From contig CAVSGP010000006.1 of assembly GCA_963727505.1 (NCBI GenBank), forward strand, positions 128,001-192,000: a stretch of DNA of 64,000 nt. The letters run 5' to 3'. This stretch comes from an uncultured Trueperaceae bacterium (GTDB taxonomy: Bacteria > Deinococcota > Deinococci > Deinococcales > Trueperaceae). Position numbers and translations under genes: made by a program. Numbering within the stretch: the first letter of the stretch is position 1; each line of letters starts with the position of its first letter. Positions 12,631 through 14,518 of the stretch are shown here, piece after piece. Below the pieces are notes generated by a model. The model saw nothing but the letters and a program-made list of their open reading frames with translations, was not told where the DNA came from and did no database searches.

Positions 12631-13005
12631 ATGAGCATAGATCCCGACGACCGCGTTCTCGAGGCGCGCACCGCAGTCCTGCGGGCCGCCGTTCCGGCCG
12701 GCGTGCGGGTGAGTTTCGGTGATGGACGCCGTCGAAGCGACCTGACGCTGGCGCTGCTTCGGGGCGAGCGGCTGTCCGTCCTGATGCTGGCGCCGCGCCT
12801 GCTCGAACAGCTCCCAGCCGACATCGAGATCGTGCGTAGCGCCCACGTCGGCCAGAGCTACGAGCTGATGATGGCGCTCACCGAGAGGATCGACCAGCAG
12901 CCGCTACGTTCGCCCGAGCGGCGCGCCAAGCTGCGCCAGCTCGCCGAAGAGCCGATACCGGACGACGAGACCGCGACGCTCCTCGACGCCGGCGACCCTG
13001 CCTGA
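12631..13005 (+). CDS. Hypothetical protein
   Basis: TACAAT 6 nt before the ATG (leaderless pattern); globular-looking 124 aa. Confidence 0.7.
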   Translation: MSIDPDDRVLEARTAVLRAAVPAGVRVSFGDGRRRSDLTLALLRGERLSVLMLAPRLLEQLPADIEIVRSAHVGQSYELMMALTERIDQQPLRSPERRAKLRQLAEEPIPDDETATLLDAGDPA

Positions 13006-13083
13006 GGGTCGCGCGAACGGCCGATAGGCCTGTCCAGCACAAGGGTGCGTGCTTTCGGCGGCAGCCAGCGGAGAGCGCCGCAT

Positions 13084-13118
13084 AGCCTATTGCATAGGCT
13101 GCAACTCCGTGCTAGACT
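13084..13118 (+). promoter_or_regulatory. Sigma70-type promoter with palindromic operator over the -35
   Basis: TTGCAT (13090-95), 17 bp spacer, TAGACT (13113-18), preceded by TGc. Perfect inverted repeat AGCCTAT-TGC-ATAGGCT at 13084-13100. Confidence 0.75.
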
Positions 13119-13192
13119 CCCTGCCCGGGGATGAAGTTCCCCATGCGGCGGCCCCCAGGGCCCCAGCCCATGTCATCAGGGAGGTGAGGTCG

Positions 13193-13357
13193 ATGATCCA
13201 GAACACCTGCGTGCACGTTTCGGGGCTCGCTCGTTGCGCTGTCGACCTGCGTCCCCCCGCCGACGTCGCCCGTAAGGGCACCGAGGTGGCCGGCCGGGGC
13301 GCCGGTGTGCGCCGCTCGCTCGAGGAGGGTCCCCCGCGGGACCGAGGGTCTGCCTAG
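13193..13357 (+). CDS. Putative leader peptide (54 aa, ends GPPRDRGSA)
   Basis: Strong SD GGGAGGTGA before the ATG. The stop codon sits within alternative hairpins about 30 nt upstream of a terminator. Confidence 0.6.
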   Translation: MIQNTCVHVSGLARCAVDLRPPADVARKGTEVAGRGAGVRRSLEEGPPRDRGSA

Positions 13358-13386
13358 CAGACTCCCGTCCGACACCCGATGTCGGC

Positions 13387-13417
13387 CCTCGGCGAGCCCT
13401 TCGCCGAGGCTTTTTTT
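13387..13417 (+). terminator. Intrinsic terminator/attenuator
   Basis: CCTCGGCGA-GCCCT-TCGCCGAGG-C-TTTTTTT. Confidence 0.88.
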
Positions 13418-13462
13418 GGCCCCAGTCCGCCATCACCCCATGAAGGAAACGAGGAGGTTTCG

Positions 13463-13606
13463 ATGAACAGCTTCATGCTTCTGCAACGAATCCGCGCCCG
13501 CGCCGGCCAGCTCCGGCGCGAGCCCACGGCCGAGCGTCTGCGCCGTGCCGGATATGCCGACGGCGAACGCCGGCCCCGCATCACGCGACACTGGGCCAAC
13601 CGCTAG
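13463..13606 (+). CDS. Small Arg-rich hypothetical protein (47 aa)
   Basis: SD GAGGAGG; MNSFMLLQRIRARAGQLRREPTAERLRR... Confidence 0.6.
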   Translation: MNSFMLLQRIRARAGQLRREPTAERLRRAGYADGERRPRITRHWANR

Positions 13607-13673
13607 CCCGCCGCACGGCCAGCAACGCGTGCGGCACGGCTCCAGAAGGCAGCGACGCCCTGAGGAGGGCAGC

Positions 13674-13925
13674 ATGAACGGATGGTATTTCGGCGCAACC
13701 GTCGCCGCACGCGAACGCATGAAGGACTTCCGGCGCCAGGCCGACGATGCCCGGGCCGCACGCAACGCACGGCACCAGGCAGGTACCCTCGGCGGCCTGG
13801 TTCTGGCCCGCCGCAGGGCCGCGACGGCGCTGTACCGGCTCGCCGACGCGCTCGCGCCACGGTCGGTCTCCGGTCCCGAGCCGATGCGCGGGGCACGTGA
13901 CGTCGGAGGACGCCCGGTCGTCTGA
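13674..13925 (+). CDS. Small Arg/Ala-rich hypothetical protein (83 aa)
   Basis: [39 protein letters not shown]...RRRAATALYRLADALAP. Confidence 0.7.
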   Translation: MNGWYFGATVAARERMKDFRRQADDARAARNARHQAGTLGGLVLARRRAATALYRLADALAPRSVSGPEPMRGARDVGGRPVV

Positions 13926-13991
13926 TCCTTGACCGTTCGGCAACGCCTCGGCTCCCGTCCGACCGGGAGAGGGGCACCGCCGGGACGGAAC

Positions 13992-14028
13992 GGAAGGGCC
14001 CGCAGCCTCGAAGGCTGCGGGCCCTTCC
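13992..14028. terminator. Perfect 17-bp hairpin between convergent genes
   Basis: GGAAGGGCCCGCAGCCT-CGA-AGGCTGCGGGCCCTTCC. Confidence 0.75.
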
Positions 14029-14065: not shown

Positions 14066-14347
14066 TCAGCGGTCGCCTCTCATCAAGCGCTCCAACCAGA
14101 ACGAGCGCGTGGGGAAGGCGGCGAAGGGGTTCTCGATGCGGGCGGGCTCGCCGTGGAAGCGGCGCAGCATGGCCTCGACCCGCGCGACATCGAGCTCCGC
14201 AGAAGCGCGTGTCGCGGTGGCCCTCGCGGGGGCGCGCCCCGCGATCCGGCCCGGCCCGTTGTGGGGGCGCGGGCGCTCGGGAGCGCGTTCGCTCCCTGGC
14301 AGTGGCATCCCGGCCAGCGTACGGAGGACGGTGGGCAAGGACCTCAT
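14066..14347 (-). CDS. Hypothetical protein
   Basis: TACCCT 6 nt before the ATG; the C-terminal half looks folded (ELDVARVEAMLRRFHG...FWLERL). Confidence 0.5.
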   Translation of the reverse strand: MRSLPTVLRTLAGMPLPGSERAPERPRPHNGPGRIAGRAPARATATRASAELDVARVEAMLRRFHGEPARIENPFAAFPTRSFWLERLMRGDR

Positions 14348-14450
14348 GACCGCAGGGTAGGGCTCGGTCGCTTTCGGTTCTCTTACCGGGGCAAGTGAGG
14401 CCGTCACCGACGCGCGTGCGTCGCTTCGGTCGCGATCGTCGCGGGTGCGG

Positions 14451-14518
14451 TCGGTGCGATTCCAGTCGCTGCGATTCCAGTCGCTGCGATTTCAGTCGCT
14501 GCGATGTCCGTCGGTGCG
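14451..14518. repeat. 15-bp tandem repeat, about 4.5 copies
   Basis: TCGGTGCGATTCCAG / TCGCTGCGATTCCAG / TCGCTGCGATTTCAG / TCGCTGCGATGTCCG / TCGGTGCG. Confidence 0.9.

Follow-up and report, generated by a model that had tools for sequence, protein, structure and literature searches.

Organization of the cassette

The window, by which we mean the whole 64,000-nucleotide stretch of DNA analysed here (C6:128001-192000), comes from a genome of 3.26 Mb with a GC content of 70%. After proS and a 124-aa uncharacterised gene, and before a convergent gene, lies a cassette that comprises an extended -10 promoter with an operator-like motif, an SD-led uORF, an intrinsic terminator and two small genes, mp1 and mp2. 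Its features are listed below by position in the window, with the strand and the basis of each assignment.

13080-13099, forward: operator-like motif over the -35 element (G-n-ATA ... TTGCATA); conserved in 33-34 promoters
13090-13118, forward: sigma-70-type promoter (TTGCAT, 17 nt, extended -10 TGcTAGACT); sequence and recurrence in mp1 loci
13127-13142, forward: predicted 5' leader hairpin; folding
13179-13195, forward: SD and start codon of the uORF, predicted partner of the anti-SD at 13241-13255; folding and cognate-pair test
13193-13357, forward: uORF, 54 aa, SD GGAGGT; sequence and relatives
13241-13255, forward: predicted anti-SD within the uORF, a putative self-lock of the start; cognate-pair test
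13314-13325, forward: conserved antiterminator strand (codons R-S-L-E-E), partner 13387-13397; covariation and folding
13327-13343, forward: hairpin P2, spanning the E-G-P-P-R-D codons; pairing in 94% of cells, both-side changes at one pair
13346-13364, forward: hairpin P3 over the uORF stop codon; both-side changes in four of seven pairs
13369-13385, forward: hairpin P4; 92% of cells paired, no both-side changes
13387-13417, forward: intrinsic terminator, stem and U7; sequence and relatives
13463-13606, forward: mp1, 47 aa with 13 Arg, pI 12, N-terminal helix and family-invariant tail Y-x-D-x-E-R-x-P-R-xxx-H-W-x-N; alignment and AlphaFold
13610-13635, forward: hairpin just past the mp1 stop; folds in 10 close relatives, register less fixed in some
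13674-13925, forward: mp2, 83 aa with 15 Arg, pI 11.7, long helix, broad unnamed small-protein family; profile and AlphaFold
13992-14028, unstranded: perfect 17-bp hairpin between convergent genes, likely the 3' end of the operon; sequence and relatives

The uORF, the terminator, mp1, mp2, the hairpin at the stop codon, the 17-bp hairpin and a 9-bp complementarity discussed below all lie where an earlier note on this DNA had placed them. Neither strand of the 17-bp hairpin carries a U-tract. No Pfam or NCBIfam family was found for the uORF, mp1, mp2 or the neighbouring genes, and the open-access papers that we searched contain no description of the locus. The genes that flank the cassette (12631-13005, and 14069-14347 on the minus strand) are syntenic in close relatives and also lack a Pfam or NCBIfam match. 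Close to the 3' end of a convergent uncharacterised gene there are 4.6 copies of a 15-nt tandem repeat (14450-14518).

Distribution and conservation

The cassette is real and conserved. DNA matches to it are present in seven of nine genomes of the same genus and in several other genera, and the operator-promoter pattern occurs in 48 of 128 genomes of the family compared with none for a reversed control pattern, so that the arrangement is far above chance. With a broad profile, mp1 was detected in 74 of 127 other family genomes and in none of 236 genomes from five other Deinococcota families. Many of the family genomes are incomplete MAGs, and a missing mp1 is therefore to be read as not found, not as absent. 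The named homologues of mp1 carry the labels Trueperaceae, Deinococcales or Truepera, and it is by these protein labels that we refer to the family as Trueperaceae. The tallies for the mp1 profile and the operator each include one match from a single unpublished genome (G260), on which no claim rests.

A total of 59 mp1 loci were analysed, leaving out that of G260, a spurious match within a 978-aa frame (L078) and two weak second matches. For two of them (L023 and L031) the automatic uORF call was replaced by a candidate with a stronger SD, and L057 was dropped from the uORF composition and anti-SD tests. Both a uORF and a terminator are found in 25 loci, 24 of which also have the operator. 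A further 19 have a uORF with no detected U-tract terminator (four with the operator), five have the operator-promoter and no uORF, and ten have neither. The full uORF-terminator unit is thus missing from 34 of the 59 loci, and the attenuator is missing in the cultured Truepera radiovictrix, in which mp1, mp2 and the operator are all present. Among the matches listed, there was no second copy of the cassette in the window's own genome, and a scan of genome contigs gave at least two Truepera loci and one weak 16-residue match.

The promoter and the operator-like motif

The promoter had been described in the earlier note as near-consensus, which is not borne out: the -35 hexamer TTGCAT agrees at only three of six positions, a promoter scan found no promoter and the form is that of an extended -10 promoter, which was matched in 49 of the 59 mp1 loci. 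Judging from the promoter spacing, transcription would start at about 13125. An operator-like motif over the -35 element is conserved. The window's own 7-bp palindrome around this element is specific to the window, being matched at 0.70 there compared with a mean of 0.28 over 34 promoters, and the conserved motif lies in another register. This motif is nearly invariant among 33-34 promoters and can be described either as a direct repeat with a period of 12 bp or as a dyad whose centre lies immediately ahead of the -35 element.

In the window's genome the best site for the motif scores 22.8 bits and the runner-up 14.5. Of the 48 positive genomes among the 128 searched, 47 have one copy and one has two. 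No regulon sharing the promoter motif was found, and a dedicated regulator may act here. The mp1 loci L061 and L063 are duplicates or remnants, the former with a second operator-promoter.

The uORF and its predicted start lock

Across the family the uORF varies between 25 and 62 codons and its peptide sequence is not conserved. Within the close clade its C-terminus follows the RNA stems, and it differs between clades. The uORF would be translated from its SD. A stretch located 40-80 nt past the start is complementary to the SD and start of the same uORF, with a cognate test giving p=0.003 over 20 representatives. When individual loci were compared with codon shuffles, p was at most 0.05 in 18 of 43, the window itself giving p=0.12. 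This predicted anti-SD is kept in lineages that have no intrinsic terminator. No known riboswitch or T-box came near the Rfam gathering score in the leader; a fluoride riboswitch was considered and rejected, the match being weak, partial and limited to one hairpin (12.9 bits against a cut-off of 34).

Three genera, g6, g9 and g12 (loci L028-L033, L035-L037, L041, L043, L047-L049 and L076), keep the promoter, a short uORF and the anti-SD and lack the operator and the U-tract terminator; the spacer there is 135-240 nt long. None of the 33 genomes of these genera has the operator. Their leaders are candidates for a Rho-dependent or translational version of the system, and Rho is present in the window's genome. 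Spacer C-richness is alike in terminator-less and terminator-bearing leaders, so Rho dependence is unsupported.

The terminator and the antiterminator

Despite the variable length of the uORF, in 22 of 25 loci the terminator stem lies 21-37 nt from the stop codon. In a permutation test over 11 clade representatives picked by the analyst, the last 45 nt of the uORF paired best with the terminator arm of the same locus (p=1e-5); with a control window upstream, the same test gave p=0.04. Shuffle tests of the duplex in single loci reached p<=0.05 in only five of 25.

In 14 close relatives, four of them from metagenomes, the strand 13314-13325 and the terminator arm close a predicted four-way junction around the three hairpins P2, P3 and P4. 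In this alignment 93% of cells are paired and there are 23 both-side changes, a level reached by none of 500 shuffles. These changes are mostly in the inner hairpins, the closing helix being nearly invariant: seven of the 11 antiterminator pairs never vary within the clade and only one changes on both sides. Conservation of the antiterminator itself is thus indicated mainly by the cross-clade test. All 14 close relatives place the anti-strand in one common frame, and three different stop codons occur among them. The EGPP.D motif near the end of the uORF largely tracks hairpin P2 and is explained by the inner hairpins of the junction.

The antiterminator proposed earlier was a different helix, 13342-50/13384-92. 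Although the complementarity exists, this helix has only 83% of cells paired in the 14 close relatives, where shuffles did as well in 188 of 500 cases, and it folds at -40.8 kcal/mol compared with -53.3 kcal/mol for the four-way junction. A separate promoter for the downstream genes, against which the earlier note had asked its attenuator model to be checked, was sought between the terminator and mp1; no promoter-like match was present in any of the 25 loci.

A small share of the words (0.07) was found in one RNA run from the rhizosphere. In it a relative's contig covers the equivalent of 13175-13423 at a depth of 11 and ends at the U-tract, and another covers 13471-13770 at a depth of 2.5. 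Since these contigs come from one study with no DNA control, they were not counted as evidence.

Folding models and ribosome position

In the local domain of the window the modelled antiterminator junction (-53.3 kcal/mol) is more stable than the terminator fold (-50.7 kcal/mol). At equilibrium the terminator is favoured in the fold of the whole leader (MFE; P 0.97). In models of the nascent RNA the terminator arm is paired with the uORF, with a probability of 1.00 in the window and above 0.5 in 22 of 25 loci, and the junction is predicted to be able to form before the 3' arm of the terminator is made. Because it is only in the local domain or in the nascent chain that the antiterminator prevails, the model has to rely on kinetics.

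The ribosome was modelled as a 30-nt mask on the local fold. For the window, the predicted probability of the terminator is 0.09 when there is no ribosome or when its A site is at codon -24, and 0.85-0.99 when the A site lies in codons -16 to 0. Among the 25 loci, 13 (including the window) switch fold with ribosome position, while 12 prefer the terminator even with no ribosome. The probability of the terminator is below 0.5 in 13 of 25 loci with no ribosome and in none with a ribosome at codon -10 or -8. A ribosome scan on truncated nascent RNA was blurred in the close clade by non-specific pairing.

These models bear on two further claims of the earlier note. That a ribosome at the stop codon favours termination holds for the window (0.96) and fails in four of 25 loci (P<0.5). 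That stalling on the Pro-Pro motif gives read-through is not supported. The two Pro codons are at -8 and -7, where a ribosome covers the conserved anti-strand and the predicted probability of the terminator is 0.99; a pause there consequently predicts termination. In addition, only 11 of the 25 terminator-bearing uORFs contain the motif.

The products mp1 and mp2

Four residues of the mp1 tail are invariant over 34 diverse sequences, and synonymous variation at these residues indicates selection at the protein level. The mp2 profile retrieved 659 representatives at E<=1e-3 and is found in 52 of 121 genomes of the order. The N-terminal helix of mp1 weakly resembles that of mp2 (probability 43%, E 2.5e-4). 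AlphaFold predicts single helices for both, with pLDDT values of 68 for mp1 and 79 for mp2, and the predicted score of an mp1-mp2 complex (0.00) speaks neither for nor against such a complex. A Foldseek search with the two models gave no matches, and the best VIA Z score of 4.1 was uninformative. Sequence searches of the PDB found nothing below E 0.1, the ESM Atlas gave only unnamed clusters with no usable named match, and none of 98 mp2 homologues was above the cut-off for a Pfam or NCBIfam family. That the tail of mp1 might resemble RbpA or the WhiB7 AT-hook was considered and has no Pfam support. It is also unlikely that mp1 is a stop-dependent arrest peptide, because the tail motif is internal in nine of the 59 loci. 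An ABC ATPase gene follows mp1 in 16 of 59 loci (flanks of 0.1-2.6 kb); the window's own genome has no orthologue of it.

The inspected examples of the mp2 family head or face operons with DUF4097/DUF2089, ABC-2, HTH_20/DUF5937, BTAD, XRE-STAND or TetR genes. Four further mp2-like genes occur in the window's genome (C15:102424-102639, L148; C2:237169-237450, L150; C8:74745-74960, L149; and C9:525848-526021, all of G000). One clear member (E 1.6e-5) heads a DUF4097/SHOCT/DUF2089 operon, and the weak members are found facing an XRE-STAND-TPR regulator or ahead of an ABC-2 exporter and a histidine kinase. Promoters with AT-rich -35 repeats precede mp2-like genes in other families of the Deinococcota, and many of these genes stand before genes of the SHOCT/DUF4097 type (L120-L122, L124-L128, L135, L136, L138, L140 and L141); the repeats are a candidate DUF2089 operator. 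Tandem mp2 paralogues are present in L051, L068, L069, L071 and L073. In nine loci (L045, L052, L054-L056, L058, L059, L075 and L077) mp1 has an Arg-rich C-terminal extension and neither a uORF nor mp2 is present; in two genomes these are second copies. A small hairpin at 13657-13670 in the window would cover the SD of mp2.

Our tentative guess is that mp1 and mp2 may be trans-acting stress factors and that mp1 might bind the ribosome or another RNA machine through its invariant basic-aromatic tail.

Interpretation and alternative explanations

In our view, the data described above are probably best explained by a whiB7-like attenuator that responds to general translation stress and controls mp1-mp2. 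Ribosomes that load promptly and pass through the last ~16 codons of the uORF would cover 13314-13325 and the inner hairpins. With this strand covered the terminator would fold and only the leader of ~290 nt would be made, and a pause at Gly-Pro-Pro would reinforce termination. If the first ribosome stalled in roughly the first 30 codons, 13314-13325 would pair with the 5' arm of the terminator as the four-way junction. If no ribosome loaded, the anti-SD at 13241-13255 would lock the start and the junction would likewise form. Once it had formed mp1-mp2 would be transcribed, so that slow translation or scarce ribosomes would switch the genes on. The operator over the -35 element likely gives a second, protein-based control. 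The signal is likely to be a general one (ribosome-targeting antibiotics, uncharged tRNA or ribosome shortage) and not one amino acid or a nascent-peptide motif. No amino acid stands out as a clear sensor in the terminator-bearing uORFs, and by analogy a general translation sensor of the kind described for whiB7 fits best.

Cysteine makes up 3.8% of the terminator-bearing uORFs compared with 0.6% of the ORFs of the genome. It occurs in all 25 of these uORFs, where shuffles lead one to expect 17 (p=0.001), and in 19 of 20 representatives. Both Cys codons of the window (6 and 15) are upstream of the anti-strand, as would suit an attenuator in which stalls at early Cys codons give read-through, and a Cys leader before cysS is reported from Deinococcus deserti in the available text of PMC4007540. 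However, in-frame TGY triplets (40) are not above those in the other frames (36 and 42), most uORFs have only one or two Cys, whose positions are not fixed and which are hardly ever in tandem, and the regulated genes are not sulfur enzymes. We consider tuning by cysteine improbable. The preference for the terminator in the whole-leader fold, together with the persistence of the operator in the five loci that have no uORF, would also suit a nearly constitutive terminator, with an abundant leader RNA or the uORF peptide as the product, mp1-mp2 expressed from a fixed leak and control mainly at the operator. Such an arrangement does not account well for the joint change of anti-strand and terminator arm across clades or for the fixed distance from stop to terminator; moreover, the uORF peptide is not conserved and the leader has no Rfam family match. 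This explanation also seems improbable to us.

Two further explanations place the trigger elsewhere. An RNA-binding protein (possibly mp1 or mp2) or a ligand might stabilise the four-way junction, the uORF being incidental. The near invariance of the terminator arm and anti-strand within the close clade and the very basic character of both proteins are in keeping with this, but it is the uORF and its spacing that are conserved across the family and not the sequence or the junction, and the mp1 tail stays conserved in terminator-less lineages; we regard this as very unlikely. Even less probable, in our judgement, is that nascent-peptide or Pro-Pro arrest, reporting on EF-P or proline status as the adjacent proS might suggest, triggers read-through through helix 13342-50/13384-92. 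Eleven of the 14 close relatives have the motif, the third positions being varied, and proS is upstream in many genera. Apart from the lack of support for the helix and the termination predicted for a ribosome on the motif, which occurs in fewer than half of the terminator-bearing loci, the first Pro and the Asp sit in P2, the Asp is replaced by Gly or Ala in three relatives with the stem still largely pairing, and the cassette has its own promoter. A general attenuator remains our preferred reading. One may extend it further, to a double-locked sensor of ribosome availability (a self-locking start, a four-way-junction antiterminator and a Pro-Pro brake that enforces termination) that drives a new family of ribosome-binding stress microproteins, with the tail of mp1 staying fixed while evolution exchanged the control layer among intrinsic-terminator, terminator-less and operator-only forms. 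As a whole this extension is unlikely.

Comparison with known attenuators

Nascent-peptide arrest leaders include the SecM, TnaC and RAPP types. No arrest-type C-terminal motif conserved at the protein level was found in the uORF. The cassette would share with attenuators of the trpL/hisL type the principle that ribosome position selects the terminator or the antiterminator. Those leaders are short and rich in one amino acid and precede genes for synthesis or synthetases; in Deinococcus they are leaderless. The uORF described here, by contrast, is SD-led, 25-62 codons long and free of tandem control codons. For D. deserti, 14 leader-peptide attenuators, which are leaderless, are predicted in the available text of PMC4007540. 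The available text of PMC11550727 describes uORF-dependent antitermination under a ribosome-targeting drug for Listeria rli53/lmo0919; there a known resistance gene is controlled, while the window's operon contains no resistance gene.

A closer parallel in its product is the duf1127-1 leader of Sinorhizobium meliloti, where, according to the part of PMC12218461 available, attenuation controlled by a uORF and induced by tetracycline governs a small, functionally uncharacterised Arg-rich protein. In the absence of ribosome loading its RBS pairs with C-rich uORF codons, which may be compared with the anti-SD predicted here. The same text describes that attenuator as Rho-dependent and acting at the uORF start, unlike the present one, and no match to the DUF1127 Pfam domain was found in mp1 or mp2. 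By analogy, the terminator-less lineages of the family might resemble the S. meliloti leader more. Taken with that case, the cassette suggests that small Arg-rich proteins were recruited independently to translation stress.

The closest comparison is with whiB7/wblC of the Actinomycetota, and the proposal of the earlier note that a uORF attenuator of this type precedes an undescribed microprotein operon is supported by the uORF and terminator at a fixed distance and by cross-clade covariation. In the available parts of the whiB7 reports (bioRxiv 10.1101/2023.06.02.543512; PMC11550727; 10.1101/2025.10.10.681568), efficient translation of the uORF gives termination. As far as these sources go, both systems have a long, sequence-variable uORF that contains the antiterminator, an intrinsic terminator just downstream, a regulated product of small size and a promoter element that is conserved. 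The Trueperaceae cassette differs in belonging to another phylum, in products that have neither Cys nor a WhiB Pfam match, in a uORF that is not enriched in Ala (14.4% compared with 13.0%), in a promoter motif shared by no regulon, and in its four-way-junction antiterminator and predicted SD self-lock. If our interpretation is correct, general translation sensing of the whiB7 type extends to the Deinococcota, a phylum for which the published leader peptides that we found are short sensors of amino acids. The leader that would achieve this is compact and portable. Its output would be a family-specific microprotein with an invariant tail, and it would provide the first regulatory clue for the large unnamed mp2 family, whose members stand first in operons, next to regulators of various kinds and to modules for export or the envelope.
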